This document shows, piece after piece, positions 1 through 64,000 of a stretch of DNA of 64,000 bases. Source of the stretch: Psammoneis japonica (taxonomy: Eukaryota). The stretch spans positions 1 through 64,000 of the forward strand of contig QPGO01000279.1 of NCBI GenBank assembly GCA_008632985.1. The letters run 5' to 3'. Below the pieces are notes generated by a model. The model was not told where the DNA came from. It ran no database searches and saw only the letters and a program-made list of their open reading frames with translations. The stretch's first letter is position 1. Every line of letters begins with the position of its first letter. The position numbers and the translations under genes were made by a program.

Positions 1-668
1 GCCCCCGTCGTCGCGTGGAGTACAGCAAGACTCATGCTGTGTCTAGCGGCAATTGCCGGTCTGAAAAGCAGACAAGTGGACCATGTGCAAGCATTTCCAC
101 AGGCAGAACTGGAAGAACCAGTTTATGTGAGACTCCCAGAAGGTTGGGAGGTCAAAGATGAAAATGGGAATGCAATGCCAGATGTGGTGTGCAAACTCAA
201 AAAGAACCTGTGCGGCACGAAAACTGCTGCGCGAAACTGGTTTCAGAAACTGTCCAAAGGCCTAGAACACCGAGGATTCAAGAAATTAAAAATAGACCCA
301 GGTCTGTTCATCAGAAATGACTGCATCATCTGCTCACACACAGATGACTGTCTTGCATTCGCTCCAACAAATGACACCATCACGACGCTCATGCAAGAGC
401 TCAAACAAGACGAGTTCCAACTTACCGACGAAGGCGATGCATCCGCTTTCTTGGGCATTGACATCACTCAAACCGCAAACGGTGAGATGTCAATGACCCA
501 GACTGGCCTCATTGATTCCACATTGATGGACCTTGGCCTGCGGTCAACCAATGATGAACCATTGCAGAATGAGCCACATGCAAAGGCCACCCCAGCAGCA
601 CAAATGTTGCATCCTGATTCGAACGGTCAGGAGCGTCAAGAAACGTGGAACTGCCAATCAGTCATCGG
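1..668 (+). pseudogene. Ty1/Copia reverse transcriptase fragment (first part of a Copia element split by three insertions)
   Basis: APVVAWST..RQVDHVQAFPQAELEEPVYV..KLKKNLCGTK..HTDD..FLGIDI..WNCQSVIG are Copia RT motifs with Tyr>His/Cys decay. The reading frame resumes at 3403. Confidence 0.92.
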
Positions 669-804
669 CACCCCTGCGTCAGTGGCACTGTGGGATGTGG
701 TTGTGTGTGATGTGTGATGATGTCATCACATGCATTGAGAAGAGAACACTCGCACAAAGGCGGATGCACATGCATGCACAAGCAATCTCCTCAATCCCAT
801 GGCA

Positions 805-2590
805 CCCCTAAATCTCGAGCCGCCTCGAAGGGACCCCACCAATTGAGCACTTTTGGTGCTCTGCAGCGCCTCGAAAAAAGCACGCGTCCCAGCAACCTTG
901 CCATGATGCTTTCAGAATGTTCGTCCCCTCCCACTTCCGACGAAGAAGCGACTGACGGTGCTGATGTTGTTGACCCCACTGCAACAGGCAATGTTGTTGA
1001 AATTGCCGTCGTAAGCCTGTTGCTTCCGAAATTATGCCTCATTTACTGACACTCTGTTTTTTCAGCTCCACCGCCTGCCGAAGCTTCTGGCATGAATGAC
1101 AACGCCGCTTCTGCCTTTCCCGCATCTGCCACACCCGAAACGCTTCCTAACCCGACTGGTGCAAGAGGCAATGGTGTCGCTTTGTCTCTCATTGGCCCCA
1201 AACTGACGAAATTGTTTGGTGCCAACTAACACCATTTTTATGTTGCTGCGCAGCGCCCACCACTCATTCCATCACCAACACCAACGCAATGACCAATGTT
1301 CCGGCGGATGACACCCCCGGTGCCTTTCCCACTGTGCCCGGTCCATCAGGTGATGACACATGTGTCATGCATTGCTGTTGTGTACCAAAAATGCCAACAG
1401 CACTGTTGCACTGTCTCACGCCATTTTTACTCATGCTCCACAGTGCATGCCACTGCTTCTGTTGCAAGAGTGGTTCATTAGAAACAATGAGCTGAGGGGA
1501 GCAAAACAGAAAGACGGTCCCATGCACCAATGTTGGCAGGTGATGCATCATCTCCGTGAAGCGTTTCATGTGAGATGGATTCTCGTAGACCTCATCCAAA
1601 TGAAAGCCGGCAACAGAGCCATGGTTGTGCTGCAGGGAGGCTCTGTGCATTAATTTCCGGCACTGGTCGGAGCCAAGTGACAGCAGGGGGACTACGGTGA
1701 GGACAACACCGCGAATGCAAACTCCAGCAACATCTCAAACAAGCGATTTGCCACCACCTGTAGGTCGGACTAGCAGATGAGGTCTGGCAGAACGTTTGCG
1801 AGAAGACTCAATTAAGCTGGAGCCAACCGCGGTCTGCCAACCATGTGGATGCTTGCCAAAGACGTCGACAGATGCAGTGTCAAAAGTTTGGGAGGCACAG
1901 GTCGAAAATGGGTTGTGGCCCGCCATGGTGTAAGCAGTGGCATGCACTGTGGAGCATGAGTGAAAATGGCGTGAGACAGTGTAACAGCACTGTTGGCATT
2001 TTTGGCACACAACAGCAATGCATGACACATGTGTCATTGCCTGATGGACCGGGCGTAGTGGGAAAGGCACCGGGGGTGCCATCCGCCGTAATGTTGGTCA
2101 CAGCGTTGGCATTGGTGATAAAATCAGTGGTGGGCGCTGCGCAGCCACAGAAAAAATAAAGGTGTTAGTTGGCGCCAAATGATTTCGTCAGCACCAGGCC
2201 AACGAGAGACAAAGCAACATGATCACCTGTTGCACCAGTCGGGCAAGGAAAGGTTCCGGGCACGGCAGCCACGGGAAAGGCAGAAGCGGCGTTGTCATTC
2301 ATGCCAGAAGCTTCGGCAGGCGGTGGAGCTGAAAAAAACAGAGTGTCAGTAAACAAGGTGTTATTTCGGAAGCAACAGGGCTGCGATGGTAATTTCAACA
2401 ATGTCACCTGTTGCAGTGGGTTAAATGTCATCAGCACCATCGGTTGCTTCTTCATCAGAAGTGGGAGGGGACGAATGTTCTGAAAGCATCATGGTGAGGT
2501 TGTTGTGCCGCGTGCTTTTTTCGCGGTAAAGAGACGGCTGAAAATTGGTCAATTGGTGGGGTCCCTTCGAGGCGGCTCAAGATTTAGGGG
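805..2590. repeat. Long internal inverted repeat, arms about 805-1458 and 1932-2590, spacer about 470 bp
   Basis: CCCCTAAATCTCGAGCCGCCTCGAAGGGACCCCACC (805) pairs with the reverse complement ending at 2590. CAGTGCATGCCACTGCTT (1441-1458) pairs with 1932-1949. ORFs 1289+ and 1880- are near-identical. Confidence 0.92.
1459..1931 (-). pseudogene. RecQ-like SF2 helicase N-terminal fragment
   Basis: VFGKHPHGWQ..LLVRPTGGGKSLV* (motif I), then GVVLTVVPLLSLGSD (motif Ia) and TVFLFCSPQLI. Stop and frameshift; truncated. Confidence 0.75.
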
Positions 2591-2657
2591 AGAGCATGGT
2601 TCAGGATTTTCATTGACCACTCAGTGGTTGGTGATTGCAGACTTTTTCGTGTCGGTC

Positions 2658-2722
2658 CGGCAGTCGGGCAGTCGGGGGGTCGGGGGGTCGGGCAGTCGGG
2701 CAGTCGGGCAGCCGGGCAGTCC
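2658..2722. repeat. 8-bp minisatellite (GGGCAGTC/GGGGGGTC)n
   Basis: About 8 tandem units read directly. Confidence 0.85.
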
Positions 2723-3402
2723 GTCTGAATTTGAAAGTGTGTCCCTTGGATTTTGAAAGGGTGTGGGTTGTTTAGTGCAGATGAATTCTTTGGATTCGTA
2801 GAATGATCATTGAGGACATGAGAGGTTGTGGGGACATCCTAAAAAATCGATAAATTCCCTACGACGGGTGCGTGGCACGGTTTTTCGGGAGAGCTCGAAA
2901 GTTCTGAAAAATTGGAATTGCTGGCGTGGCATGTTCAAAAATGCACTCAGTTATGTGCAAAGATAGTTTGTCATGAATTCTACACAAAAAAGTCACATTG
3001 GGGAAAACATGTCGAACAACAAGTGACTTTGTGCGATGCGCTGTTATGGCGATAAATTGGAAAAAAAAGAGTGTCCGTGCACCTCGCTGCAGCCCCAAAA
3101 ATGGCATGAGACATCAAATGTGATGGTCATCCGCATCACCGGTGCGGTGGCCATGCCACTCAGCCACCACAATGCCGGCCCCGGCGGCAGGGCCCTGCGT
3201 ACGTACAGGCAACGGCACACATGCACCCACACCCACAAAGAAAGACAAGTGGTCAATGCTCCCCGCAGGCCTGGTTCCTGCAACCATTGGCATTTGTGTG
3301 CAAATGCAATTGTCTTTACATTTGTGCAAATGTAAAAATGCCATGACGTGAGCATGCATCACCATGACATCACCAACCATGCTCTCCACTGACGCAGGGG
3401 TG

Positions 3403-3449
3403 AGTCATCGGAAAGATGAGTTTCTTAGCTCAAGTGACTCTCCCAGACA
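3403..3449 (+). pseudogene. Copia RT continuation (VIGKMSFLAQVTLPD)
   Basis: In-frame bridge between WNCQSVIG (668) and DVVMAAHMCARFS (12706). Confidence 0.88.
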
Positions 3450-4129
3450 TCCATGACCAGAAAAACGTGGCCTGGCCAGACCATTTGTGGTTTTTCTGGT
3501 CGGTCTGGCCAGGCCATTTACGAACCTGCACCAGGCGTGTGCTGCTGAAACGCAAAATTTACGAATCGCAAATTAATTTATAAAAACAAACAGCTCGAAT
3601 TTTTTCATGATGAAAGCACGTGCGAGGTCTCTGAGTGCTTCATTTTTCACTTCAAATGAGCAAATGCCACTGTTTCGACAACCGAAGGTCTGCAAGTGAC
3701 ATGAAATAACAAACCCATCAGATCATTGTCATTATGAAGAGCTGTGTGACGTTTTGTTTGTGAGGAAAGGCGGTGTAATAATCCAAAAAGGTCATTTTTG
3801 TTGAAATCTTGCTATGCGTCGGCATGAGTTGCTGTCACGAGAAGGCAATTTCCTTTGAAAATAAGGATTTCTTGTCATTTCTCGTGCATCACATCTTTTC
3901 TTAATCGAAGTAGAAAGAATGCCTGCACCTTGAATTGCACCAGAGGATGTTGGCCGCGTCGCAAAGACGATCTTGGAGGGTGACAAGGGTCGTTTCTCGA
4001 CTTGCCGCGTGATGATTGTGCGGGGATTCGGAATTTGTCGCAAATTTTGTGATGTCGCAAATTTTTCGATTCGGCAGTGTGTGTGTAGACTCTACGTGAC
4101 ATTCTGAAGCGAACTCCACGATCGCGTGC

Positions 4130-5660
4130 GAAATGACGAGTTCACCATGACGGCTCCGTTCTTGCCCGCTGTAGCTGCACCTTCAACAATGGCTTGCATG
4201 AGAACAAAGGACTCTCCTTTCTGTTGTTTGGATGAATGCTTTTTTTATTTTGAGATGGAGGTGAGTGGTGTGATTGTTTCGAAGTGGAAAGAGCCACGAC
4301 TGCCAACGGTGTCTAAAAATCTGCCACTTGCGTTTCGTTTGTTTGCCATCATCTTGACTCCCACAACAGTTCTCGGGACTTTCTTCATGCTTGACGTCAT
4401 CTTGAGATCTTCCATGCATGCCATTCTGGATGCTTGAGTGATTTTGATGGAATCGCATGGACTTGTGGCATCTCAAGCACTTGTGTGAGCATTTTGCACT
4501 GAACACACTAAACACGTCTCGTCCATGCTCTTGCGAGTTGTCTCTTGTCACATTTGTTTCTTGCAATTGTAGATGGAAGTGGAGCAAGCACTTACATCTA
4601 AGAAACAAAGCAGTGAAAAATCCACACAAGCAATGGAGGCTGAGTTAAGTCGAGTTTCCTCCTTTCCAGTTCATTTTGTTGCTCTGTGGATCGGACGAGG
4701 GCGCCGAGCTGGAACTTCAAAAAGCATTTTTGTCTGCATGTCATTACCTTTGTCTTCGAATGATCTCCCAAGTTCACAAAGTACAAATCTTCACCTTTGT
4801 TTGCATGGCCGAAAAAGACACCCCCGCATCAGTCGCTGGTGCGAACTCACGTGGTGGCACGAGCTCACCGTGACGGCTCCGTTCTTGCCTGCTGTAGCTG
4901 CACCTTCAAGAACAGCTTGCATGAGAATAAAACACTCTCCTTTCTTTTGTTTGGATGAATGATGTTTGATTTTGAGACAAAGGTGAGTTGCACGATCGTT
5001 TTTAAGTGAAAAGAGCCATGACTGCCAACTGTGTGTAACAACCTGCTACTTGCGTTTCGTTTGTTTGCCATCATCTTGACTCCCATCACAGTCCTCGGGC
5101 TTTCTTTGCGCTCAACATTGTCTTGAGATCTTCCCTGCCTGCCATTGTGGGCACTTGACTGATTTTGATGGATTGCATGGACTTTTGGCATCTCAGCAGG
5201 AATGTGAGCATTTTGCTCCGACGCACCAAACACGTCTCCTCCATGCTCGTACCGCACAAGTTGTCTCTCACCCCAGCTGTTTCTTGTGATTGTAGACGGG
5301 AGGTGATTGAGCACCTGTGCCCAACAAATGTTGTCTTGAGTTGTTCCATGGATGGCTTTTGGTGCCTCAGCACTGTTGTGAGCATTTCGCACCGACGCAC
5401 AAGGAACGTCTCATCTGTGCTCGTACCATGCAAGTTGTCTCTCACCCTCCAGCTGTTTCTTGTGATTGCAGGTGGAAGGTGATCAAGTGCTCATGTCTAA
5501 GAAACAAACTGGTCTCGGTTGTTCACGTGAAGTCGAGTTTCTTCCCTTCGAGATGGTGTTGTTGCTCTGTGGATCGGACTGGGGCTTCGAGGTGGAATTT
5601 CACACAGCATGTTTGTCTGCATGTCACCTCCTTTGTCTTTGAAGCACCTCCCAAGTTCAC
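4130..5660. repeat. Diverged tandem duplication (about 725-bp period) of the transposase 3' end and 3' region
   Basis: TCACC(A/G)TGACGGCTCCGTTCTTGCC at about 4142 and 4865. Second unit has an extra internal duplication of about 180 bp. Confidence 0.8.
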
Positions 5661-7271
5661 AATGTAAAATTCGCCACCTTTGTCTGTGCCAGCGCAAACA
5701 TGCTCGTGGCACCTGATGCAGAACCAACGTGTGCATCTTCCACACACTGAACATGCATGCCGGCATTTTGCATCCTCATCAGCACTGGCGTCATCAATGA
5801 CATCTGGATTCACAAGGCGAATGGGCATCCCAGTGCATGTTTGCCGATGTTCTCTCACCTTTGCTTCTTCTGCTGAAAGCGCTCCACCTGAAGCTGCTGA
5901 TTCCTCGTAAATTCACTGCCGCTTTGCATCTCTGTGCGGGCTGGACCCAGTTGATGCTGCACCCATCGCAATTTCCTGAAATTGTGATGCATGGCGAGTT
6001 TTGGCGGCTTGCATGGATGGTGGCACTGACGTTGATTCACTTTGCTGCGAACTTTGCTGCGAACTCTCCAATGAGGATTGACTTGCGTCGATGCCCATTT
6101 GACAAAGCTTGATCCCGATCCTGACAATTGACTTTTTGAAGCTGCCTTCACGCTGATTTGCTGCTCTTCGATGCCCCTGGATTGTTCCGCCGCAGCTCTC
6201 TTTGATGGATTTCTTTGACGACAGATGTAAATGGAAACCAGTCGGAACATTTGATTGTGTTGGCACCAAGCGACCCACCAAGCTCCAGGACATCAAACAC
6301 AAGATCAAAGCTGGCACAGCCATGGTCAAAGTCACATTCAACGTTTGTAAGGCACCGTTGCTCGCTTCCGCCATCGTTGGGTGCAAAGGCATTTCTTAGC
6401 ATCCGCTTTGTGCTGGTTGCTGTGGTGTCGTTCTTTCCCTGAACACTGAAACCAATTGGGACACCGGTTGCCGTGTACACTGCTGTGTCAATCACAAAGC
6501 CTCTTGCATTGTCCCCAACATGTTGCACCGGCTTAGGCTCGTTAGCTTCGACTTGTCATGTGATGTGACAATGCACTTTGTCATCGTCAACAGTGACTTG
6601 CATCTTTTCTTTCATTCCCTCTACAAAAAGCTCAGCTGCAAGTTGGTTGAGGCGTTCCTCAAGCTTCCTCCAGAAAGACTTTCCAGCTCGTTCGCTGGAT
6701 CTCTGACTTTCATCTGCATGGTAGATTAGCTTCCAAAATAATGAATGCTCTTCTTCTTTGGTGAGCAATCTGGGAAACATTTTGCAATCACGCATGTCTT
6801 GAACTGGCATGTCAATTGCACAGGACAAGAAAAACGTTCCAAGACAGTGTTGGAAAATGCCAGCTTGTCCACAGAGGGCCTTGAATTCTTCCTCCAGAAG
6901 ACGAAAGAGGTGACTCCGTGCCCCCAAAAATGCTCTGTCACCATTTCGGAAGACAGTGGCCCAGGAGTTTCATCATCACCCTTTGAGCCAATACAAAGCC
7001 TTGCGCGAGCCTTAATGTGATCTATTTCTTTTTGCCCTTGCTCACACAAGGCTTCCCTGGATTTGTCCACAGCAATCGAAACCGCACTGTTGCCCCCATT
7101 GTTCCGCCACGTGCTGGCTTTCGGAGCTTGCTTTGGACGCCAGTTGGCTTCATCCAAAGCGTCACCACGGTGAAACATGCCATGAGCTGACATCTCACAG
7201 ACATCATTTGCATCATCATCACCATAATCTGGACAGAAGAAAGCCGCAGGGTTGTCAAAACAGAACGCCAT
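5523..7271 (-). pseudogene. piggyBac-like DDE/D transposase, frameshifted
   Basis: QVTVDDDKVH and CDFDHGC (probably DRGY). C-terminal Cys-rich domain CSVC..WFCIRCHEHVC..TCCVKFH. Confidence 0.65.
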
Positions 7272-7420
7272 TGTCGGTGTGATGTTTTGTGGATCGTCCA
7301 AAATGCAGAAAAGAGCACTCCGCACCGCTGCGTGGAGCCCAGCACACTTTCGTAACTGGTCTGGCCAGGCCAGTTACAAGAAATTTGGGGTTGTGAGCAT
7401 GCAAAAAATCTGGTCATGGT

Positions 7421-7587
7421 TGTCCACGAACACTTTCTAAAAATTGTGGGAAAAGCTGCGATTGACTGCAGCCACAGTGTTTGGGTTTCTGTCGCAGAAT
7501 TTCTTCGAGGTGTCAACAATCCCGGTCATTCGAATCTCCCGAATCTTGCAGCTGCTGACGCAATTATGACATAGAAGTTAAACTTCA
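7421..7587 (-). repeat. 3' LTR of the Gypsy element
   Basis: Near-identical to 12540-12705. PPT at 7588-7599. Confidence 0.9.
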
Positions 7588-7642
7588 CTCTTCCCTTCCG
7601 CGATTCATGCGAATGCTTTGAATCGCAATCCACTTGATCATG

Positions 7643-8524
7643 TCAAAGTCGATGCGGCAAAATGCGTCGAATGTTGATTCTTTCGAACATGTGAGGCGCT
7701 CTTTGTATGGTGACGTTTCCATTTACATGAACCTGTGTGACAGGAAAGGGACCAAAAGATCTTTCTTCCAATTTGGTGGGATCGTCTGTTTTGATCAAAA
7801 TTTGTTGTCGGACACGACAGTCGAAAAAGCGTCTTTTGAGGTTTTGTCGACGTAAGTTGTCATCAATCAACACTTGCCGATGATTCCGAATGGCAATTAA
7901 ATCTGCAATGAGAGGCAAATCAAGAAACATGTCTCTCTGGTGGATGAGGGCTCCTGGTGACATTCCCAAAACTCTTGAGGTGGCACATCGTAGACCATGC
8001 ATGGTTGTGGCCAATGCGTTGTCAACTGCACATTGAGCCTCTGTCATGTTGCAAGGAGGATGTCCCCTGACTGTGGCTCAAATGATGTTGCCAGCTGTTT
8101 GATGCATTCTTTCGCAAATGGCATTGGCTTGAGGATTTCCAGTGGTGGTTTCCACGTCTTTGATTCCAGCCCTCGCCAACAGAAGCTGAAATGGCTCACC
8201 AACAAATTCACCGCCCTTGTCATGAATGCAGCGGTTTGGTTTCGGATGTCTTGCCAACCAACAATTGGCAAACTTCATCTGCACATGATCTGAAGTCTTG
8301 TTGTCAATGCGAACTAATTCCACAAGATTAGAAACAGTGTCAATCGCCATCAACGCGTTAAATTCGACTTCTTGTTGTTGCACTTGTGCTTTCCAAGGAC
8401 CAATTAAATCAATGGCCACTTCATCCCACGGAACTAAAGGAGCTTCTCTTGGTGGCAAGTGACCACATCCAACTCCCCAAAGTTTGTTCCTTCTGCATAC
8501 ATCGCAATGACAATTTTCGACCAA
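7643..8524 (-). pseudogene. Gypsy integrase with C-terminal GPF module
   Basis: PWDEVAIDLIGPW..IHDKGGEF..NPQANAICERMH; GPFPVTQVHVNGNVTI..INIRRILP. In-frame stops. Confidence 0.92.
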
Positions 8525-11128: not shown

Positions 11129-11658
11129 ACTGGATCATAATCCAGGTCCTCTTAGATGTGGACCTCATCCGACATCCGTTCCTCCTGACGTCTCGTCAGG
11201 ACCTCCTGGCGGACCATAGCCTGCCACATCAAAAATGGTGCACATCTGCACCCCATTCTTGAGACTGAGTGTCAGTCGGAGGAGCTCGTCGAGCCGGATG
11301 AGCATTTGGTTCTTCTGAACCACTCTGCACCTGATTTTTGATTCGCACAAAAATTTTGAGGCGAATTCTGTGGACCGCATCCTCGGCCCATGCTGTTTTG
11401 GTTATGACCACGGCCATGTCCACCTTGACCGCGTCCAAAACTATTGTTGGGAGCACATCCACCATCGCCACGTCCACGTCCAGCGTGGTTGGCGTTCTGA
11501 GGACCATAAAATCGGCCTCCATAATTTCCTTGGCCTGCATGTGGGTTTCGACCTCGTCCACGACCAGCATCTCGGCCTGCACTTGGTGAACCTCGGCCAC
11601 CTCTCTGAAAATGAGGATTTGGATTGTAATTCGGGCTCTTGGGATTCTCCCCACAATT

Positions 11659-12453: not shown

Positions 12454-12539
12454 TGCATTTAAGGTAAAGAATGCACAATAAAGAAAAGAGAAGGAAAGAA
12501 CAAGACACAGTGTGATCACAGTGAACGGTCTTGACAAGT

Positions 12540-12705
12540 TGTCCACGAATGCTTTCTAAAAATTATGGGAAAAGCTGCGATTGACTGCAGCCACAGTGTT
12601 TGGGTTTCTGTCACAGAATTTCTTCGAGGTGTCAACAATCCCGGTCATTCAAATCTCCCGAATCTTACAGCTGCTGACGTAATTATGACATAGAAGTTTG
12701 CTTCA
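12540..12705 (-). repeat. 5' LTR of the Gypsy element
   Basis: Near-identical to 7421-7587. Confidence 0.9.
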
Positions 12706-13835: not shown

Positions 13836-13837
13836 TT

Positions 13838-29276: not shown

Positions 29277-29279
29277 CTC

Positions 29280-55167: not shown

Positions 55168-55559
55168 TGTCACATCAAGTGCAGTGGGCATCCCTGCCGT
55201 AGCCGCCGATGATGCTGCTTTCCTGCGTCTGTAGGCTGTCCGTAGCGACGCTGATCCCGCAGAAGCGCGCACCAGGAAACGCGACTCTCAGCATGAGACC
55301 CACGAAGGGCTACGGGAGATCCATACGACTGAGACCGGCGCGACTGGCCATCGCGTACGTGACTCACCTTGTATGAAGGGACTGCGTAGGATGTATGTAC
55401 GCAGTACCGAGTATGATTGGTTCCGCGCAGGGACTGAAGACGCGGCACTGTATGTCTTACTGTCGCGCGTACACATGCAGTCTTATAATTTACGCAACAC
55501 ACGAATTATCAACCCTCTTTACGACTTAGTGCTTAGACCCTATTTTTGCATAGGGCACA
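55168..55559. mobile_element. Solo-LTR-like insertion with unmutated composition
   Basis: TG..CA ends. Interrupts Gypsy pol between PR and RT. Rich in TpA and CpG. No clean TSD. Confidence 0.6.
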
Positions 55560-55842
55560 AGACTGTTTGTGGCATGCGGTTTCTCAATGTGATTGGCTGT
55601 CAGCGTGAACACTTCAGTGTTAAAGAGTGCATCAACATTGTTCATGGGTGTGGGGGCATTCTCCCATTTGATTTTTTCATTTGCAAAGTCCAACAACATG
55701 ATTCCAAGACTGCTCATTGAGTCATGTCCCATGATCACATCATGTTGACTTGAAGAAGCAGTGCTGTCATCTGCTTGTGCTGTCTTCTCAACCCTTTTGT
55801 GTTTGTCTAATTCAGGCAATGAGAACTGCATTGTACAGTGAC

Positions 55843-56872
55843 ACAATTCTGCCTTGGTTTCACGGCCACAACCCCTGCTTGTTTTTCTACGTGAGCCCTG
55901 GTGCTGATGTCACCTTTTTCAGGTGGTGTGATGATGACTCTTGCCTGCCCTTTCTGAGTGCATTTTTTATTGACATGCCTTTGTTCGGTCATCACAAGCA
56001 ATCTCACGTATTTGAAAGCAACTGGCATCAACCTCTTTTGGTTGGTGTGCTTGTCATTCTTGTTGGCAATTTTTTCCTTGGTTGCAATTTTTTCTATGCA
56101 AGTTTCAGCACACAAATTCCATGTGTTCCAAAAGTCATTTCCAGATGGCCGACTGGCCAAACTACAAACTGTTCTCTGTCCATGCCTCTCAAGTGTCAAT
56201 GACTCCCCTTCCATCTGTTGCCAATCTGAGTTCTCTGCTTTATGTGGTGGACAATCTTCTGTCATTGATGCTCCCAGAAGTCTGCATTTGAGATCAACTC
56301 AGCATGATTTGGCCATTCTTCTATTTGCTGACAATTCTGCACAAGTTTCAGTGCAAATTCTACATCTCTTGAAAGTGGTTTCAGATGATCCACTTGCCAA
56401 TCCATGGATTGTTTTCTGTTCACACCTCTCAGGTCTTAATGACTCCTTTTGTCCACTGCCAATTTAAGTTCTCTGCTTCATGTGGTGAACAATCTTTTGT
56501 CAATGCCACCTGCAGAACTTGAACTCAAGACTTCAGCATGGGTTGACCAGTTTTTCCTGTCCCTTTGCTCTCTCTTTGGTTGCACCCATTCAAGATTGCT
56601 TGTTTCATCCTTGCAACCAGATCCTGTCCCAAGCAGATGTCCTGATGGCAGCATTGAGTGCTTCAAATTTGATGTCTGGTTTTGTGGGTCCTGTTTTTGC
56701 TGCTGCCAGCTATTTCTGGTGGGCACAACAGACTTGTGGTGTCATTTTTGGCTGATTGCAACACATTCCTGCTGCACTTTATCAATGCACTGGGGGTGCA
56801 AGTTAGCTTGTTGCCAAAGTTGCAGGGTGGAAGTGCAGCAGCACTTTTAAATGCAGAATTTTGGTTTTGTTT
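55843..56872. mobile_element. About 1-kb insertion flanked by 16-bp direct repeats (possible 5'-truncated non-LTR element)
   Basis: TGCATTGTACAGTGAC (55827-55842) / TGCATTGTGCAGTGAC (56873-56888). Right end resembles 53185-53308. Confidence 0.65.
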
Positions 56873-57851
56873 TGCATTGTGCAGTGACTGTCAGTCATGA
56901 AGAGTTTGCCCTTGGTTTCCCAAGTTTGGGTGGCGGATTTCTTCATTCTCAATTTCTGCATGAATTTGTGCAAAATCATGGTTGACAATGTTCCACTGTC
57001 AAGAAGAATGCACAAGGGCTCATTTTTCTCCTTTCCCAAAGAAGCATTCATGTGAGCAACAACTGTTGGACTGGTGTGTGAGTTGCTTTGGCATTTTTTC
57101 TGGGCTTCCTGACACCTGGTGACATGCACAAGACTCCTCTGCAGGAGCAAGTCATTCTTCAGAATTGCTGCACAATGTTTTTTCAAACTGACAATTTTCC
57201 TTGCTGAGTGAATCAGAATTGTGTTTCTTGGGCTTGTTCTTGTGTTTGGAATTCTTCACATTGGGACTTGTGGTGAGTGACATGTTGATTTCCTGAGTGA
57301 TGATGGCATTCAATTCTTCTTTTGGAGGGGTGTTTTTAGTGTTGCGATGTGACCACATGCGACTGCCATTTGAACAATGCCTTTTCATGTCATGCTCAAC
57401 ATTCTTCCAACATTCCTTGGCTAAAAGCAGCACTTGTCCATATTGTGAGTGGACTTTTTGCAACAATTGCACCACTCATTGGACTCGGAACATTTGGCAC
57501 CAGATTGGCGATCACCTTGCGGGGTCGACTGATGGCTCCTGCAGCAGGGCATGAGGTTGCACATGATGTCACAAAGAGCTCATCCTCATCCAAACTCTGC
57601 AAGGCTCAAAAGGAGGGCAGCAATTGAAATCATCATTGACCCCCTGTGTCCAGGTGGCAATTTCCCAGATCTTCATGGTCTTTGGTTTCTTCAAATCACA
57701 TTGCAGGTGTCGTTTCTGGTTGCAAAGTAATTTCTTGGGGAAGACATGAGTGGTGAGGTGTTGCGGGCATTTTTCGAAGGCTCTTTCATCACATTTGGAC
57801 TCCAGGTTTGCTGCCTTGTTCTCAAAAACTTGAAGAGCATCTCCCTGCAAC

Positions 57852-58995
57852 CTCAGTTTGGTTTCACCATGTAATTTCTCAAAATTCCCTGGGATTAACT
57901 TACCACCTTTTACCCTGTTTTTCCACGGGAAGGGTGAATTCCCGGGGAATCGCCACGAATTGCCAATCTTGTCTACACATGCTAAATGCATGAATAAAAA
58001 ACATTGGCAATTCCCCGTGCTTCCCCTCTCATGCATTTCTGCGAATTCTACATGCCGGCATGTGCAGAACCACACACCATCAACCGACCGCAACAAAAAT
58101 GGTCAACACACCATGGAGCATTCGCATCCCATTTATGATGGCTCTTGTCAAACAACAATGAGACCAGTCAATCCAGTGAGTGAGATTATGATCAACAGTG
58201 TAAAATAAAAAATGAACAGAACTGTGACAGATGATGTTGAGCAGACAACTGGAGCATTGATCCAAAAGAGTGATTCTAAATTATCCACTTCATTCTGCAC
58301 ATAAGATGTGTCAATTGGAAGAACAAACATGGCCATTCACTCCGCCATGTTTTCATCAGCAACACATGGTTCTGCTTTTGCCTTGGACTTTACCACAAAT
58401 GCTGCATGGCTTGCATTTGTGACCTGTTGTTGTGCAGCTGCAAATGCAAACTGTGAGGCATCTAGAGTGAAGGCTAAGGCAAAAGCAGAACCTCACAAGG
58501 CCAATAAAAATTGTGGGGGATTGTGTGGTCATGCTTGTTCTTTCCTTTGACCCATCTCATTTGCAGAACACAGTGTGTCATGTGTTCCTTCTTGTGTGGC
58601 ATGGTCACAAATGCAAACCACAAGGGCTCTAGAGCAAAGGATGAGGCAAAAATAGAACCGCACATGAGCAACATTGACATGGCTGATTTAACGGTAAAGT
58701 TTGTTCTTTCCTTGCTCTGCCACAAGAAGCTGCTTTTGTGTCGATGCACTGGTCATTGTCGTCATCTTGCATCATGTCGCGTCGGTTGTCAGGGGGATAA
58801 AAGCACAACCACCTGACTGTAATTACCGCACATTACCACATTCCATTTGTTTTGTGTTCCCCTCCCCTGAGCCCTTTCAGGCATTCTTTCCCACAAAATT
58901 ACCCTCATTTCCCGGGTTTTCCCCAAACGGGCAAGGTGACTCCCCCTCACCCTGGCCATTTTGGGGAATCCCCAAAAGGGCAAAACCAAACTAAG
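57852..58995. mobile_element. Non-autonomous TIR element with 8-bp TSD (hAT-like)
   Basis: TSD CCTGCAAC (57844-57851 / 58996-59003). 13-bp TIR CT(C/T)AGTTTGGTTT. Removing it restores gag VLLQGDAL. Confidence 0.85.
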
Positions 58996-59699
58996 CCTGC
59001 AACAACACATGCACAATTTGGCACTTGTCAGCTTGGCTCTGTTTTGCATTCTGTCCAACCTGAAGTTTGGCAAAGGTCTTCAAAAATTTGATGAACTTGG
59101 GAACTCCTTGCTTGTTGTGACACTTGATGTTGATCATGCAAGTGCAACTTTTTCATCTCCAGGGTCAAAACACTGCTCCATGTTGAGACACTAGCTTGGC
59201 TTGAGTGCTTTTGGCTTGGAAATCAATTCCAATGGAACAGGACCAATTTTCTCCTGCTTGACGCAGATCTGGGCATCCATCACTTGGGGTGAAAGCTTCA
59301 TTCTTGTGGTTTTACCTTCTGTGGAGTGCATGCACAATGCACTCCTGTGCTTGAAGAAGGAGTGCAAATGAAAGCAGAACAAATCACAAAAAGTGAAAAT
59401 TGTGAGATTGGGCTTCTTTGCTCTCTGCAATTTTGAGATTCTCCAAAGGTGTTCTCAACAGCCTGAAGCTTTGGCACTGCTTCTACAGACTGAAGGCCTT
59501 TTGGAGAATCTGATCATGACAACAGATTATCCGGATGCAATCAACATTGACGCCTCACATGTCAACATCATCTGTTGATGGCACCTGTGCAATTTTCAAC
59601 ATTGGATCAACTCTGTGTGATTGATCCATCCTTTGTGTGCATCCACAACTGTGACACGATTGACACATGGCACAACATGTGTGACTGTGAACAAGCACA

Positions 59700-62600
59700 T
59701 GACAATGCATGCTGCAGACCATCTCAGAAAGCTTGAGAAAACATTCACATGGCTCGAGCAAGCGGGATTGAAGGTTAACACCAAAAAGTCATTTTTTGCC
59801 AAGCCAGAGGCAAATTGTCTGGGTTTTCACATCACTCAAAATTGCATCAGACCAAAACCTGAGAAAGTGGAGGCGATTCAAGCAATTGCAATGCCTGCCA
59901 CTCACTGGGAATTGTTGTGTTTCATTGGCATTGTCAATTGTTGTGGAGACATGTGATCCAATGCCTTTGGCCAAACTCACCTCATTTAAGGTTAAGTGGC
60001 AATGGACAAGCACAGAACAAAAAGCCTCCAAAAATGTGAAGTGGATCATGTCAAAAGATGTGTCACTGTCACACCCAAATTTCAACATTCCCTTTGTGAT
60101 CCATGCTGACACAAGCAATTCTCTGCCAGGAACAGTCACAATGCAGAGAACAGCAGACCTGTTGCCTTCTACAGCCACAAGTTAAATGGAGCACAGACGT
60201 GCCACACTGCAATGGAAAAAGAATTTGTGTCCACAGTGGAGACACTTGAGGAATTCCAGAATGTGCTGTTTGGCCAACAGATTAACATGCACATGGATCA
60301 CAAGAATTTCACCCAAGAGAACTTCACAATGGAGAGACTCATGCATTGGCAACCAACAACAGAAGAATGCAGCTCCAAAACAATTTACCTCAAGGGCAAA
60401 GTGCATGTTGTTGCAGACACGATCAGCCCAATCACTGTGAAGAAAAGAGAACCTGTGGAAAACCTCAGCAATGAAGAACCAGCTGACAAAAGTTGCACCT
60501 GAACCCCATGACAATGTCTTTCCATTAACACAAAAAGTTCTCGACACTAAACACAAACAGGATGAAGACATTTTCCCCAAATTGTTGGACGCAACATGTC
60601 ATGCCAAAACTTTTTGTTGAGGCAAGCAAAACCAGATGCTCATCTGTCACAAGGATGAAATCATTGCACCAAAGACATCACAATGAGTGGTGACAGATTG
60701 CCACCATTTGCACCTTCTGCACCATGGCATAAATGGAACTGAAGAGACAATCTCACAACACTTGTGGTGGTCCATCTCATGTGAAGATGTGCAAAGATGT
60801 GTTGAAATGTGAGACATGCCAGAAATTTAAAAACAAACAAAAGAAATGTGGGCATTTGCCTCCTGAGTTCACAGAACCAGTGCCATGGGAAAGACCACAC
60901 ATGGATCTTGTTGGAACATGCAAGATGCATCGGAAGGACAAAAAGAAACCCCCAGCTCTGAAATGTCTGACAATGACAGATCCAGCAACAGCACAGTTTG
61001 AAGCAGCAGAAACTCCAAACATGGAATCCATGACCATTGCTAGATTGTTAGAGAGAATGTGGTTCTTGAGCAGATGTCCTTGGCCATTGTTGGTCACTTG
61101 TGATTGTGGAAGTGAATTTGTTGGATGTCAATCTCTAGAACTGTGGTTCACGATTGTTGTGGCATTAAATGCAAGCCCACAACCATGCAAAATCCACAAG
61201 CAAATGCCACAATTGAGCACATGCATCAAGTGCTGGGCAACATGCTGCATGCATTTGATTTACAAAATGCACCCCTGGATGCTCAGAGTCCTTTTGAGGG
61301 AATGCTGTCAGCAGCAGCCTTTGCACAGTGTGTTTGACATGTCATGCCACTGTGCAAGCTGCACCAGAAGAATTGGTCTTTAAAATGCTAGAGACATTGC
61401 CAACTGGAAGTTTGTTCAGAAACAAACACAAGATGTTTTAAATGCAAACAATGCCAGAGAGAATGCATGGTGCACTCCATGCACGTGCAGAGTGGGAGAA
61501 AAGATCTTGCTAGAAAAAGACTCTAAAAAATTAGAATGGCCTTGTGCTGGGCCATGCATCATGACAACTGCACACACTCAATGGCAAAGTGCAGATCAAA
61601 TGTGGTGATCTCATGCATTGACACTGTCAACATCTCCAACAAATGATTCCATTTGACGAATGACTCCAATGTGCAATTGGGAAGGGGAGTGCAGCATGCA
61701 TTGTCAAGTGGGTGAAATTGTGCATGTTCACAATTGCACAATGTTGTGTGTCAATCGCACCACAATCATGGATGCATGCAAAGATCAAAAAACCAGATCT
61801 AAATTTAAAGTGCCATCACTCCTCTGCCAGCCAGTCTGACCTGGCTGACCCACAGCCCCAGTGCACAGTTAAGTGTGGCAGGAGCTTGTGCGGCATTAGC
61901 CAGAATGGGCATCACCAGAAGGTGACACCCCACCAAGACAACTGAAAAAGAATGATTCACAAGAGGGATTTATTGCGCGCTTGCTGATGACAGCCACAGA
62001 AGGCACACCACAACTGCAACAGACAATTGCATTCAGATGGGTTTTTAAAACAGTCAACAAAAGGAGCCTTGAAGGCAAGACAAGCAGGTCATTGGAGAAA
62101 ATGTTTGTTGCACACAGAAGCAGCACTGAGTCTTGCACAGAAAAGCGGATGGCAGCAGCAAACCAACGACAATCAAATGGCACCACAGGATGACTTGTGT
62201 TCTTGCTGAAAAGGGCTGAAACAGAAGCAGCACATTCACCTCATAGAGTGAAGTGCTTGATTGCATGGCAGAGAAAAAAGTGGGGTTGAAGACCGATTGG
62301 CAAGGACAAAAGTAGTCTGGATGAGTGACACGTAGATGGTCAGTGGTGTCACATTGACACAATGCCAGATCTTGCGCAGAACAGCCGATGAGAGCAGCAA
62401 ATGGATGACAATCAAATGACTCTGAAGGATGACTGACATTCTTGCTGAAAAGGAGAAGCAGCACTTTCACCACAAAGAGTGAAGGACTTGATTGCATGGC
62501 AAGGAAAAGAAGTGGCATTGAAAACCAATTTGCAAGGATAAAAACAGTCTGGGGAAGTCACATGCAGATCATCAGCAGCATCTGCACATCCTGGCAGAAT

Positions 62601-63141
62601 TTGCACTAGAACCTGTGCAGAAAATTTTCTGAGACAACAGAAAATTACGAGAAACAACAACCAGCACACTGGCCAACAGGCCGTGACAGTCATCATTTTC
62701 CACTGATGAACATTGCTCATCATGTTGTAATGAGGATGTGCCATTGGTGAACAAGGACAGCATGGGCTTGTTGGAGCCAAATCAACACAAGAAGGTGCGC
62801 AGCAACCTGTGTACAAGCTGAGGGCATGCAGCTGATGTCGAAAAAGTGTGTGCAAAGATCAGATGGATCACACAGAAAAAATTGATCGGATGTCTAAAAT
62901 TACAAAAACACCATGGATGGACAATGTTGACACACAAGATGTCAATGTCGATTGCATCGGGACAATCTGTTGTCACGTTTAGATCACACGAAAGGCCTTT
63001 GCTCTGTAGAAGCAGTGCAAATGCTTCAGGCCATTGAGAACTCTTTTGGTAAATGGCAAAATCACAGTGTAAAATCTGATCTTATAATTTCCACTTTTAG
63101 TGATTTGTTCTACTTTCATTTGCACTCATTCTTCAAGCACA
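59700..63141 (+). mobile_element. Decayed Gypsy 3' half (RT end, RH, INT) plus long 3' LTR (about 61690-63141); same family as 53310-59690
   Basis: GLKVNTKKS, HADTS, DHKNF, PWERPHMDLVG, NPQANA. PPT GGGAAGGGGAG. 62840-63141 matches 59346-59660 inverted. LTR has internal repeats of about 240 bp. Confidence 0.85.
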
Positions 63142-63249
63142 GTGCAAAAGGTCAATTGACATTGCAAAACAAAACTTTTTTAACTCTCATGACTTGTTTT
63201 TCTGATGTGGCAGCTGTCTCCACTGTTGCCTGCAATCTTTCAAGCTTTT

Positions 63250-63670
63250 GATTTTTTCCCCTCATGCAACGTGCATCTTATCTTGTGAAGCAGCAGGGAC
63301 AGTGTGTTCATGTGACCGTGTTTCTGCCTCAGTGCGGCTTCTGGGGACCAGCCCTTCCTCTGCATTGGTCACACTCAGTGTTGCGCACATTTTAATCTTT
63401 TTTTCTCATGCAACATGCATCTTGTCTTGTGAAGCACCAGTGACAGCATGCTCAAGTGTTTCTGCCACAGTGTGGCTTCTGGTGACCAGCCCTTTCCCTG
63501 CATTGGTCACACTCAGTGTTGCGCACATTTTAATCTTTTTTTCTCATGCAACATGCATCTTGTCTTGTGAAGCACCAGTGACAGCATGCTCAAGTGTTTC
63601 TGCCACAGTGTGGCTTCTGGTGACCAGCCCTTTCCCTGCATTGGTCACACTCAGTGCTGTGCACAGAAAT
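63250..63670. repeat. Tandem repeat, about 3 x 138 bp
   Basis: TTTTCTCATGCAACATGCATCTTGTC at 63401 and 63539. Diverged first unit. Confidence 0.9.
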
Positions 63671-64000
63671 TTTGCATGTGTGACATCCTCCTGCAGATTT
63701 CCTGTGCACAGCCATTTGCAAGCTTAACATGGGCCGACAGAGTTGCACTTTCTCACAGGGCAATTTTTCATCCAGATGCATGACTGGCAACATGCGATGA
63801 TTCACCAAAGGTTTTGGCTGCATTTTTTTTTGGTTGGCTGTGGGGAAGAATGGTGAGTTGTTGACAAACAAGATGATGCAGTGCAAGACCAACATTTGAA
63901 CCACAGCCAAACACTCCCCAGGAGCTGCCGCAACCTTGGCCATTGCATGTGCCAACGTGATGTTCATCAGTGGGGAAAACAAATTGTTTGATGTTCCCAA

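Follow-up and report, generated by a model that had tools for sequence, protein, structure and literature searches.

Transposable elements (TEs) in the window, the 64,000-nt stretch of DNA analysed here, are strongly depleted of TpA and rich in TpG and CpA, and the cause is very probably a targeted process that converts TpA to TpG or CpA in these elements at the DNA level. The changes run in one direction, are specific to TpA, prefer a pyrimidine 3' of the changed adenine, affect both strands alike and occur after duplication of the DNA, while the neighbouring host gene is spared. To judge from the available text of a 2026 preprint (Mettrop et al., bioRxiv 10.64898/2026.01.13.699255), this signature has been reported once, in Bigelowiella natans; the window carries it in far more extreme form, on LTR retrotransposons. 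The statement in a sequence-only reading of this DNA that no eukaryotic system with such a signature had been described is thereby outdated, as the preprint reports exactly the same one.

Over the whole window, 1003 TpA were counted against 4330 expected (observed/expected, O/E, 0.23), and the O/E values of CpG, TpG and CpA were 0.51, 1.59 and 1.61. Per 2-kb bin, TpA O/E lay between 0.05 and 0.43 in 30 of 32 bins; the two bins with the host gene (16001-20000) gave 0.62 and 0.55, with CpG O/E of about 1.0. The 58 1-kb windows within TEs showed a median TpA O/E of 0.165 (range 0.03-0.58) and CpG O/E between 0.06 and 1.11. With 0.56 for the gene, the one gene available for comparison, the view of the sequence-only reading that the TEs are TpA-poor and TG/CA-rich beside a normal host gene holds. 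The TEs and associated repeats are as follows.

1..15300, unstranded: left TpA-depleted TE block, TpA O/E 0.15-0.41 per 2-kb bin
1-717, plus strand: copia reverse-transcriptase fragment, catalytic box HTDD (RVT_2 match)
7419..12698, minus strand: gypsy LTR retrotransposon with LTRs at 7419-7579 and 12538-12698 (Pfam RVT_1 and RNase H)
7646-11029, minus strand: pol of this gypsy element, colinear with a 1142-aa homologue in a single tblastn HSP (64% identity)
11659-12546, minus strand: gag-like ORF of the same element
13772..15307, plus strand: gypsy RNase H-integrase fragment of a separate element, ORF 13838-15292 (Integrase_H2C2 match, tblastn)
23449..29277, plus strand: copia element A, catalytic box HVDN (tblastn against a 1859-aa copia homologue; RVT_2 at 27390-28136)
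31625-33885 and 33884-36145, plus strand: tandem duplication of a 2.26-kb retroelement fragment (RVT_1 fragment at 32983-33459)
39827..45221, minus strand: copia element B, YVDD retained (RVT_2 match)
44000..64000, unstranded: most decayed block, TpA O/E 0.05-0.28 and CpG O/E 0.11-0.44 per 2-kb bin
53790-55020, minus strand, and 59717-61286, plus strand: gypsy relics in the most decayed block (tblastn)
50496-50871 and 63261-63665: short tandem repeats in the most decayed block

A public DNA run contained short contigs identical to TE stretches (for example 8468-8644, 22837-23098, 23135-23344 and 26234-26424), at single-copy depth and with no other letters. These exact matches show that the TG/CA states are present in reads, which answers a check on raw reads suggested earlier, with the qualification that the run may be the window's own source sample and thus the source of the assembly. 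In related gypsy loci from metagenomes, TpA O/E was 0.45-1.00 in 78 of 78 (median 0.72), which implies that the depletion is not native to the TE lineage; the relatives of the TEs are diatom-like. The TpA depletion of the TEs in the window is thus confirmed as real.

The unmutated reference consists of one host gene, about 4.5 kb, with a short repeat next to it.

16500..21000, plus strand: unmutated island with an expressed host gene (RNA-like contigs over 17366-20486)
18429-18511 and 19785-19857, plus strand: host-gene introns of 83 and 73 nt with GT..AG joints
16966..17278, unstranded: MITE-like element of 313 bp whose terminal inverted repeats are 45 bp long (arms 16966-17010 and 17278-17234, 97.8% identity)

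Within the island TpA O/E was 0.45-0.95 in eight of nine 500-bp bins and 0.30 in the bin at 19501. The single-copy stretch 17259-20572, spanned by a DNA contig of depth 32 with no other letters, had O/E values of 0.56 for TpA, 0.93 for CpG, 1.16 for TpG and 1.19 for CpA, and TpA O/E in the promoter DNA was 1.19. Unique DNA, proposed as a further check, is thus represented by one stretch, promoter and two short introns, without TpA depletion. The gene consists of long exons with few introns between them and belongs to no known family, Pfam and homologue searches having returned no match. Mutated DNA ends at a sharp edge close to the repeat boundary. The MITE-like element likewise showed no TpA depletion (TpA O/E 0.68, CpG 1.42), and the summed contig depth of its bin, a crude measure, was about 4800 compared to 32 for single-copy DNA. 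As an element at apparently high depth keeps its TpA, repetition alone does not define the target; the description of the hypermutation as repeat-restricted therefore applies to the depleted TEs and the spared single-copy gene, but not to this short repeat.

Loss of TpA left a clear trace in the encoded proteins. Among 234 tyrosines of homologues, 27 were kept in the window, 82 had become Cys and 51 His. This pattern recurred in the individual elements, with 4 of 19 conserved tyrosine columns kept in the gypsy element 7419..12698 (12 Cys, 2 His, 1 Phe), 6 of 53 homologue tyrosines in copia element A (20 Cys, 11 His), 12 of 65 in copia element B (21 Cys, 16 His) and 1 of 25 in the gypsy relics of the 44000..64000 block. 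We reproduced the low tyrosine counts noted earlier for the 867-aa pol (6 residues, 0.69%) and the 484-aa RH-INT ORF (2 residues, 0.41%, with 5.36% Cys); 120 homologues of the former contain 2.56-5.08%, 240 of 240 pol homologues at least 2.56%, and the host ORFs of 308 and 305 aa have 7 and 13 tyrosines, respectively. The motif changes FLGY>FLGC, VTYYRD>VTCCRD, DASDYQ>DASDCQ, KNYST>KNCST, LAPLTDL>LAPSTDL and RIQD>RTQD were all recovered upon alignment to the homologue consensus. Among the reported variants of the YxDD box, HTDD, HLDD and HVDN were present, but CVDD was not found in a non-exhaustive search; FVDD and RLDD occurred as well, and YVDD was retained once. Since loss of TpA also removes TAA and TAG, long ORFs survive in all frames.

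Conserved pol residues served as reference for polarising the changes (1942 conserved positions in three elements, yielding 357 unambiguous single-step changes). TpA was destroyed by 101 of them (A>G after T in 62 cases, T>C before A in 39) and created by a single one (a G>A after T; no C>T before A was seen); 121 were of the CpG type (G>A after C in 78 cases, C>T before G in 43), and the remainder comprised 39 other transitions and 96 transversions. The 62 A>G changes after T stand among 80 polarised A>G changes in total. At codon position 2, A>G had affected 47 of the 100 sites preceded by T compared to 16 of the 521 preceded by C, A or G (p = 5e-29; odds ratio 28), so that in this consensus-polarised comparison, which had been proposed as a decisive one, the change is 28-fold likelier after T than at other NpA. 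Concordantly, T>C at codon position 1 was seen at 22 of 100 sites before A and at 3 of 171 elsewhere (3/89, 0/58 and 0/24).

Comparison of repeat copies placed these changes in time. The two LTRs of the gypsy element 7419..12698 are 95.7% identical, and all seven mismatched positions fall within YpR dinucleotides: three are TA<>TG/CA, all in TAY contexts, two are CG<>CA and two lie within one TG<>CA. The tandem duplicate 31625..36145 (97.9% identity), which is young and mutated only in part, differs at 47 positions, 10 of the type TA<>TG/CA, 26 CG<>TG/CA, 6 TG<>CA and 5 other, the latter being the only mismatches outside YpR steps among about 1870 other positions. Both copies retain 58 TA and 101 CG sites, so that 10 of 68 TA and 26 of 127 CG sites differ. 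Over ten repeat pairs, YpR-to-YpR exchanges made up 750 of 1296 mismatched positions. The LTR pair and the tandem duplicate show that the changes arise in DNA, after duplication. Copia elements A and B form one family (86% identical over 5.36 kb), and a simple two-copy model, whose estimate is biased low by rate differences between sites, gave their common ancestor about 104 TA in 5.36 kb (O/E about 0.3); if the model is right, the copies received some of the depletion from that ancestor instead of gaining all of it in place.

Both strands were equally affected, with 27 TA/TG and 25 TA/CA differences in the copia pair, and no strand-coordinated runs of changes were found. On the edited strand, 51 of 84 lost TAs were followed by a pyrimidine compared to 50 of 190 strand views of kept TAs (odds ratio 4.3, p = 9e-8). 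Tetranucleotide O/E values in the TEs were 0.073 for RTAY, 0.197 for YTAY, 0.226 for RTAR and 0.322 for YTAR; the corresponding values in the 78 relatives were 0.86, 1.01, 0.52 and 0.57. Moreover, a purine preceded the codon in 37 of 51 Tyr>His compared to 34 of 82 Tyr>Cys changes (p = 6e-4). The preferred target is 5'-TAY-3' with the A changed, which equals the T of 5'-RTA-3' on the other strand. Altogether, polarised spectra, copy differences and strand symmetry sustain the earlier claim of TpA>TpG/CpA conversion on both strands, unlike 5mC deamination and the reverse of RIP.

We propose that a host process works on chromosomal TE copies already in place, where it turns A:T into G:C at TpA on either strand, giving TG or CA, and spares the neighbouring single-copy gene. 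CpG decay from cytosine methylation proceeds beside it, and jointly the two push all YpR steps to TG/CA. The likeliest chemistry is enzymatic deamination of the adenine to hypoxanthine, read as G, within silenced TE chromatin, and a TadA/ADAT-type or other zinc deaminase is the candidate agent; that such a targeted process and adenine-deaminase chemistry hold jointly we rate a little short of an even chance. In substrates of tRNA A34 deaminases, as far as we know, U33 always precedes the target A, and the natural site of bacterial TadA is UACG, so that both contexts would fit T-A-Y; most eukaryotic ADAT2/3 substrates, however, have a purine 3' of A34, where the changes seen here favour a pyrimidine. 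The process would be of the same kind as the TpA hypermutation of integrated viruses in B. natans, and its effect would be RIP-like, mobile DNA being inactivated irreversibly. Regarding the earlier idea of genome defence through A>G at TpA, the data support the process, whereas the defence role and adenine as the damaged base, together with the enzyme and the choice of targets, are what we infer from its pattern.

As A>G on one strand is T>C on the other, thymine chemistry would fit the sequence equally well, and T>C at RTA describes the symmetric signature as well as A>G at TAY does. A TET/JBP-type dioxygenase might mark the T of TpA in silenced TEs as 5hmU, further oxidised or glycosylated, and T>C at 5'-RTA-3' could follow if a 5-formyluracil-type by-product paired with G or if repair were faulty. 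5-Formyluracil is mutagenic. According to the available text of PMC11572971, dinoflagellates, in the related SAR supergroup, possess such a TE-targeted modification: 5hmU is made by a TET/JBP homologue, is enriched on TEs and silences them, and, as earlier work had found, replaces T preferentially in TA and TC. This known system resembles ours in its TE enrichment and its preference for T in TpA, but there 5hmU is an epigenetic mark, and T>C hypermutation of dinoflagellate TEs is not reported in that text (PMC11572971). Furthermore, the TC preference predicts changes at TpC, yet T>C before C accounted for only 2 of 357 polarised changes and TpC is unaffected here. We consider both the dioxygenase mark and the thymine route to T>C unlikely.

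Deamination of 5mC at CpG is present in parallel to the TpA process and accounts for the CpG part only. CpG O/E fell to a minimum of 0.11 per 2-kb bin, and TpA and CpG depletion correlated across the 58 TE windows (Spearman 0.60, p = 7e-7). Several elements with TpA O/E of 0.15-0.18 retained CpG O/E of 0.6-0.73, indicating that the loss of TpA can far outpace that of CpG. Diatom TEs are methylated via DNMT5a, as described in PMC9998398; such 5mC-driven decay of TEs has its counterpart in the 121 CpG-type changes among 357, but it cannot remove TpA, and TpA loss exceeds CpG loss in several elements. The correlation, and the presence of both change types in young duplicates, would also suit error-prone repair in methylated heterochromatin, in which non-canonical mismatch repair would be drawn to the T:G mismatches that deaminated 5mC leaves behind, and a Pol eta-like Y-family polymerase would wrongly place G opposite T in WA motifs. 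The WA hotspot of Pol eta is known from somatic hypermutation. However, WA mutagenesis predicts A>G at AA as well as at TA, whereas A>G at codon position 2 was found at 10 of 173 sites after A compared to 47 of 100 after T, with a window-wide AA O/E of 1.15. The elements that are poor in TpA at CpG O/E of 0.6-0.73 also argue against it, as does B. natans, where changes occur exclusively at TpA and the available text reports no CpG component (bioRxiv 10.64898/2026.01.13.699255). Both the repair pathway and its polymerase appear improbable, clearly more so than altered thymine.

An origin before integration, through ADAR-like editing of retroelement RNA or reverse-transcriptase errors later fixed by retrotransposition, is scarcely credible. 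Retroelements have an RNA stage, and the modelled copia ancestor was already TpA-poor, but the two LTRs of a single element have diverged by such changes, as have tandem duplicates that arose at the DNA level, and the strands are equal (27 versus 25), where sense-RNA editing should leave A>G on a single strand. The 3' base favoured by ADAR is G, and the enzyme is, to our knowledge, confined to animals; lost TAs were followed by G in 11 of 84 cases and by a pyrimidine in 51, so that ADAR-type hyperediting failed on the 3' base as well as on strand and timing. The 5' U favoured by ADAR, as cited in bioRxiv 10.64898/2026.01.13.699255, would agree with TpA. Just as far-fetched is an artefact of sequencing or assembly, or a native composition of the TE lineage with no mutational process of the host, since, even though the sole DNA run containing the stretch is possibly the sample behind the window, TE stretches recur letter for letter in independent read contigs of single-copy depth, 78 of 78 related loci have TpA O/E of at least 0.45 and 240 of 240 pol homologues at least 2.56% Tyr, conserved Tyr changed to Cys or His, copies differ at exactly such sites, and the contig also carries a host gene of normal composition.

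The targeted TpA conversion of TEs shares with RIP of ascomycete fungi the dinucleotide-specific transition hypermutation of repeated or mobile chromosomal DNA, the sparing of unique genes, coding sequence full of missense changes and a sharp edge by the repeat boundary. RIP itself was rejected, since it changes C>T at CpA and creates TpA, whereas here 101 TpA losses stand against 1 gain (among the 357 changes, one G>A after T and no C>T before A); RIP also makes stop codons, while the process here removes TAA and TAG. RIP depends on RID and on the sexual cycle, and its targets are duplications longer than a threshold length. The sparing of the 313-bp high-depth element gives at most a hint toward a similar length threshold. 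Diatoms encode a RID-related DNMT4 of unknown function, according to PMC9998398.

Editing by ADAR (on RNA) and APOBEC (on cDNA) in animals is likewise a deamination of bases by the host, with hypermutated genomic copies of retroelements as the outcome, but it acts before integration and on one strand, in contrast to the post-duplication changes on both strands with a 3' pyrimidine described here. APOBEC yields C>T or G>A. We know of no targeting to repeats by the amphioxus enzyme BjADAT2. This ADAT2-type enzyme, the one for which editing of DNA adenine has been demonstrated, is capable of deaminating adenine, and also cytosine, in DNA, although its contexts in E. coli, GAA for adenine and TCG for cytosine, differ from the TA context here (as given in PMC10354150), which speaks against the deaminase chemistry.

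The closest counterpart is the TpA>TpG/CpA hypermutation of integrated viruses in B. natans. According to the preprint, mutation-accumulation lines had 231 mutations in two integrated viral regions, of which 230 were A>G or T>C, the GC-biased mutations all lay on TpA, RT and DDE domains were enriched among TpA-poor coding sequences, and an ADAT2 homologue was proposed as agent (bioRxiv 10.64898/2026.01.13.699255). Hypermutation of this type would be expected to yield de novo events in real time at about 1000 times the background rate, for which the tandem duplicate, with 10 of 68 TA sites differing compared to 5 mismatches at about 1870 other positions, is the nearest proxy in the window. Both systems show A:T>G:C transitions at TpA, here almost only there, with TpG or CpA as product depending on the strand, and long-term low TpA with high CpA and TpG limited to foreign or mobile DNA, which in the window is judged by one control gene, the MITE-like repeat also being spared. 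They differ in that B. natans is a chlorarachniophyte (Rhizaria), whereas the TEs here have diatom-like relatives and the gene has long exons with few introns; depletion is mild there (rho TpA 0.45 in the giant-virus insert) compared to a TE median of 0.165; the main targets are giant-virus and virophage inserts there and high-copy LTR retrotransposons here; and the direct mutation-accumulation evidence of the preprint contrasts with the sequence of one window (bioRxiv 10.64898/2026.01.13.699255). Because its main text has no word on trinucleotide context, flanking bases or diatoms, the TAY rule and the coupling to CpG decay are additions of the present analysis. We tentatively suggest, as a possibility rather less probable than adenine deamination itself, that a conserved, enzyme-driven editing system acts at 5'-TAY-3' (on A or T) in silenced mobile DNA as a RIP-like defence of opposite polarity, in at least two SAR branches, a diatom-like stramenopile and the rhizarian Bigelowiella. 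If so, the agent behind it would be without natural precedent as a deaminase or thymine modifier that hypermutates chromosomal double-stranded DNA at A:T pairs, and the present genome, with the signature saturated on hundreds of TE copies, would be where comparative genomics could find it.

Transposon sequence makes up nearly all of the 64-kb window, in which the following features were recognized.

Transposable elements (TEs) and host gene in the window
1-717: copia reverse transcriptase (RT) fragment
7419-12698, minus strand: gypsy LTR retrotransposon with LTRs of 161 nt
13772-15307, plus strand: second gypsy element, an RNase H-integrase fragment
~17.4-20.5 kb: host gene, the only one in the window
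23449-29277, plus strand, and 39827-45221, minus strand: two copies of a copia family, 86% identity over 5.36 kb
31625-36145: tandem duplication (2.26 kb) of a retroelement fragment
~44 kb to the window end: strongly decayed block with gypsy relics

In a public DNA run a contig of depth 32 spans 17259-20572 with zero differences, and the depths of this run's contigs, summed over TE stretches, range from hundreds to ~18,000, indicating that the TE families are highly repeated. Contigs of a second run (X2) are spliced across two introns of the host gene (83 and 73 nt, both GT..AG), which is therefore expressed. This run is RNA-like, as judged by its spliced joints, and covers, apart from the MITE-like element just upstream, only the host gene; absent cover of the TEs was not taken as evidence. 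After removal of the two read-supported introns, an in-frame stop remains between two long ORFs of the spliced host mRNA (18884-18960, after ...NSQV), which may point to an additional intron, to an alternative isoform or to the presence of two genes. Searches with the host gene returned no Pfam family and no usable Atlas hit, its 304-aa ORF had no homologue among proteins of 167-532 aa, and no tRNA genes were found in the window. The closest relatives of the 867-aa gypsy pol product are proteins from marine and other metagenomes, together with a transcript of the diatom Pseudictyota dubia (P0083, 56% identity). These relatives, along with the long exons and few, short introns of the host gene, suggest a diatom-like alga. 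The top copia matches, P0146 and P0147 on megabase contigs, were rejected as close relatives since their scores were inflated by two tandem matches each, at 46-47% identity.

Across the window the observed/expected ratios (O/E) are 0.23 for TA (1003 occurrences compared to 4330 expected), 0.51 for CG, 1.59 for TG and 1.61 for CA. TA O/E ranges from 0.05 to 0.43 in 30 of 32 2-kb bins, and the remaining two, which contain the host gene, are at 0.62 and 0.55, with CG at ~1. The sequence-only reading had described TpA-poor TEs next to a normal host gene, and the difference is indeed striking: median TA O/E is 0.165 (0.03-0.58) in the 58 1-kb TE windows, where median CG O/E is 0.505, versus 0.56 in the single-copy stretch (CG 0.93, TG 1.16, CA 1.19). 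At 500-bp resolution the normal island extends over ~16.5-21.0 kb; the promoter-side DNA at 16780-17340 has a TA O/E of 1.19, and the ratio falls to 0.06 within at most ~430 bp past the end of the single-copy contig. TA O/E is 0.45-1.00 (median 0.72) in every one of 78 related gypsy loci retrieved from metagenomes, so TpA depletion is not inherent to the TE lineage. RIP leaks into flanking unique DNA. At the 3' end of the host gene (19501-20500), at most ~1 kb from the TE boundary, TA O/E of 0.30 and 0.45 and CG O/E of 0.82 and 0.53 are below those of the rest of the gene in a very small sample, and the process seen in the TEs may likewise leak there.

The direction of change was determined by polarising three best elements against residues conserved among homologues (1942 positions). 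Among the 357 changes assignable to one unambiguous single-base step were 62 A>G after T, 39 T>C before A, 78 G>A after C, 43 C>T before G, 39 other transitions and 96 transversions; changes creating TpA were confined to one G>A after T and no C>T before A. Rates were normalised by opportunity, using sites at codon position 2 for A>G and at codon position 1 for T>C. In a comparison fixed beforehand as a refutation test, A>G was far commoner at TpA than at other NpA, affecting 47 of 100 position-2 sites after T, but 2/120 after C, 10/173 after A and 4/228 after G (odds ratio 28, p 5e-29). T>C at position 1 was found at 22 of 100 sites before A versus 3/89, 0/58 and 0/24 elsewhere. These polarised, opportunity-normalised spectra support the TpA-directed process in TE DNA that had been proposed from inspection; the role in genome defence proposed along with it is putative.

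The encoded proteins carry the same trace, and the protein-level details quoted in the sequence-only reading, the scarcity of tyrosine and altered YxDD boxes among them, proved correct. Pol contains 0.69% Tyr and 4.84% Cys versus 2.56-5.08% and 0.82-2.77%, respectively, in 120 homologues, and four further TE ORFs contain 0.41-1.16% Tyr versus 3.03-5.26% in 120 copia homologues. Considering the 339 gypsy pol columns in which 70% or more of 60 homologues share the residue, the 19 conserved Tyr columns are kept in 4 cases and changed to Cys in 12, His in 2 and Phe in 1, whereas other residue types are 62-100% kept. In six TE segments taken together, the positions opposite 234 homologue tyrosines hold Tyr in 27 cases, Cys in 82, His in 51, Phe in 21, Trp in 11 and another residue in 42; Tyr retention is thus 12%, versus 34-72% for all other residues. 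The former YxDD box reads FVDD, HLDD/RLDD, HVDN or HTDD, with YVDD retained in one copy. FVDD, at the RT active site of the gypsy element (7646-11029, minus strand), derives from a TAT>TTT transversion, by which the TA is gone and the aromatic residue kept; such Tyr to Phe replacements could represent selection on still-active lineages under TpA-hostile mutation. In the tandem copies the box reads MHLDD at 33xxx and TRLDD at 35xxx; one copy moved from His to Arg, an A>G after C outside the usual context.

The edited strand was deduced from sites at which a TA retained in one copy faces TG or CA in the other. A pyrimidine lies 3' of the changed A in 51 of 84 such events, whereas conserved TAs, viewed from either strand, have one in 50 of 190 cases (odds ratio 4.3, p 9e-8); the base at -2 had no comparable effect in the same copy-pair events. 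Moreover, the TE O/E is 0.073 for RTAY, 0.197 for YTAY, 0.226 for RTAR and 0.322 for YTAR, compared to 0.86, 1.01, 0.52 and 0.57, respectively, in the 78 relatives, and ATAT persists in the TEs at 2% of the relatives' density, TTAA at 56%. The motif can thus be written as 5'-TAY-3' if the A is the changed base or, equivalently, as 5'-RTA-3' if it is the T. This accounts for the excess of Tyr>Cys over Tyr>His: TAY is itself favoured on the sense strand, whereas Tyr>His needs a purine before the codon; this purine is present in 37/51 Tyr>His versus 34/82 Tyr>Cys (p 6e-4). TAY provides a sharper target, which any candidate enzyme must reproduce.

The LTRs of one element are identical at insertion. 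In the gypsy element 7419-12698, the one pair on which the LTR comparison rests, all 7 mismatched positions are in YpR steps (3 TA<>TG/CA, 2 CG<>CA, one TG<>CA among them), and three TAs are conserved in both LTRs. No LTR pairs were detected for either copia element, even with 7-base words. The two halves of the tandem duplication (97.9% identity) differ at 47 positions, comprising 10 TA<>TG/CA, 26 CG<>TG/CA, 6 in TG<>CA and 5 other. Differences thus affect 10 of the 68 TA sites and 26 of the 127 CG sites, but 5 of the remaining ~1870 positions, which puts the mutability of TpA close to that of methylated CpG and tens of times above that of other DNA. Ten repeat pairs yielded 1296 mismatched positions, of which 89 are TA<>TG/CA, 243 CG<>TG/CA, 410 TG<>CA, 8 TA<>CG and 546 other; the many TG<>CA double differences are as expected if two copies resolved an ancestral TA or CG independently. 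When family copies in the DNA run were aligned to the window, 557 of 629 variant places were transitions. The copia pair is balanced between strands (27 TA/TG versus 25 TA/CA differences) and its differences are interleaved, with no strand-coordinated bursts (19 and 12 runs versus 17.5 and 10.4 expected). Between its copies (23725-29277 versus 45221-39827), 25 TA are kept and 52 are TA versus TG/CA; a simple two-copy model would give the ancestor ~104 TA in 5.36 kb (O/E ~0.3, biased low by rate differences between sites), and under this model part of the copia depletion may predate the two copies.

CpG>TpG/CpA steps account for 121 of the 357 polarised changes, and TE windows poor in CG tend to be poor in TA as well (Spearman 0.60). 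The two losses are nevertheless partly uncoupled: the bins at 4-10 kb have a TA O/E of 0.15-0.18 and a CG O/E of 0.60-0.73, while both are very low at 44-64 kb. Cytosine methylation of diatom TEs is reported as established (PMC9998398); it accounts for the CpG part only.

Within the window, TE DNA, and only TE DNA, has undergone a DNA-level, TAY-specific, strand-symmetric A:T>G:C process. As the candidate agent we tentatively favour, at slightly less than even confidence, a deaminase that would be drawn to silenced TE chromatin and convert adenine to hypoxanthine, of which A>G is exactly the outcome. In favour of this chemistry, tRNA A34 deaminases, as far as is known, always meet a U before their target, and the bacterial TadA site is UACG. 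ADAT2 is described as able to deaminate adenine in DNA, but the adenine context given for BjADAT2 in DNA is GAA, which speaks against the deaminase explanation (PMC10354150). The main rival holds that the thymine is modified and that an oxidised product mispairing with G gives T>C at RTA. A dinoflagellate TET/JBP enzyme is described to deposit 5hmU in TEs, and older work reported that this base prefers TA and TC (PMC11572971); here, however, TpC is not affected (2/357 changes), and we regard this explanation as unlikely. Still less probable is error-prone repair at WA motifs, which predicts AA>AG, a change that is rare at 10/173 sites. GC-biased gene conversion among repeats was rejected: it is not TpA-specific, whereas here AA, AT and TT show no depletion and A>G seldom occurs outside TpA. 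RNA editing before integration or RT error is contradicted by the differences between LTRs and between tandem duplicates and by the strand symmetry, leaving it a very small chance. That the TG/CA states are an artefact is just as hard to credit, since four read contigs of the DNA run (177, 262, 210 and 191 nt, depths of 33-51, i.e. single-copy) match TE stretches exactly with 0 other letters, although this run may be the window's own assembly sample and thus not independent; furthermore, the host gene is normal on the same contig, the copies differ from each other at exactly the TpA/YpR sites, and noisy base calls would hardly leave frames open for up to 867 codons.

A 313-bp MITE-like element with 45-bp terminal inverted repeats lies just upstream of the host gene (16966-17278) and is covered by RNA-like contigs. 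It keeps its TAs (TA O/E 0.68, CG 1.42), and the summed read-contig depth of its bin is ~4800 compared to 32 for single-copy DNA, apparently ~150x by a crude depth measure. As this high-depth element retains TpA, repetition alone seems insufficient to define a target; length, methylation or chromatin state may matter, and short or euchromatic repeats may escape the process.

On both strands the TE parts (1-15300 and 20600-64000) contain 633 TAA, 420 TAG and 2854 TGA triplets, and the host stretch 59, 57 and 128, respectively. Because TAA and TAG have been erased, long reading frames stay open in every phase of dead elements; 71 ORFs of 150 aa or more, mostly spurious, are spread over all six frames, and gene finders will over-call such TE regions. 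Among the 150 best library representatives for pol, P0275, P0297 and P0308 contain 0-0.46% Tyr and, in the conserved Tyr columns altered in pol, likewise have Cys or His, e.g. DASDCQ. P0275, P0297 (with P0416 and P0417) and P0308 represent gypsy families other than that of the window (39-55% identity), and the three lie on NCBI/ENA contigs of up to 123 kb. These Tyr-free sequences place the same signature in other public records, of P. japonica or another organism, and call for caution in annotation, as Tyr-free, Cys/His-rich 'proteins' enter public databases (3/150 best representatives).

To our knowledge, the established genome-defence mutators (RIP, APOBEC, 5mC decay) all act on cytosine, and hypermutation directed at the A:T pairs of mobile DNA has hardly been explored. 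If the agent were a natural DNA adenine deaminase, it would be of interest to base-editing research. The sequence-only reading knew of no described system with this signature, a claim superseded by the preprint of Mettrop et al. (bioRxiv 10.64898/2026.01.13.699255), which reports TpA-specific hypermutation in the chlorarachniophyte Bigelowiella natans. According to this preprint, 231 of 302 nuclear single-nucleotide mutations in mutation-accumulation lines fell in integrated giant-virus and virophage regions, at ~1000x the background rate; A>G or T>C made up 230 of these 231, and all such GC-biased mutations are stated by the authors to lie on TpA. They further describe 124 clusters of 1-kb windows that are TpA-poor and CpA+TpG-rich, an enrichment of RT and DDE domains in TpA-poor coding sequences, and an ADAT2 homologue as the proposed agent. 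A text search of the preprint's main text found no mention of trinucleotide context or diatoms, and the literature searched, which excluded subscription journals, yielded no second report of the TpA>TpG/CpA signature. By the preprint's joint cut-offs, 44 of 64 1-kb windows of the present stretch qualify. The two systems share the TpA signature, but its long-term trace is weak in B. natans and saturated in this window, and the targets are giant-virus and virophage inserts there and ordinary LTR retrotransposons here. Compared to B. natans, the present case is thus more extreme, affects retrotransposons, adds a refined motif and apparently belongs to a different lineage, given the diatom-like TE relatives, the kilobase exons of the host gene and a saturated depletion that extends over 64 kb and families of hundreds of copies. 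A saturated signature in an apparently different algal lineage suggests that the process is powerful and widespread and not peculiar to one strain.
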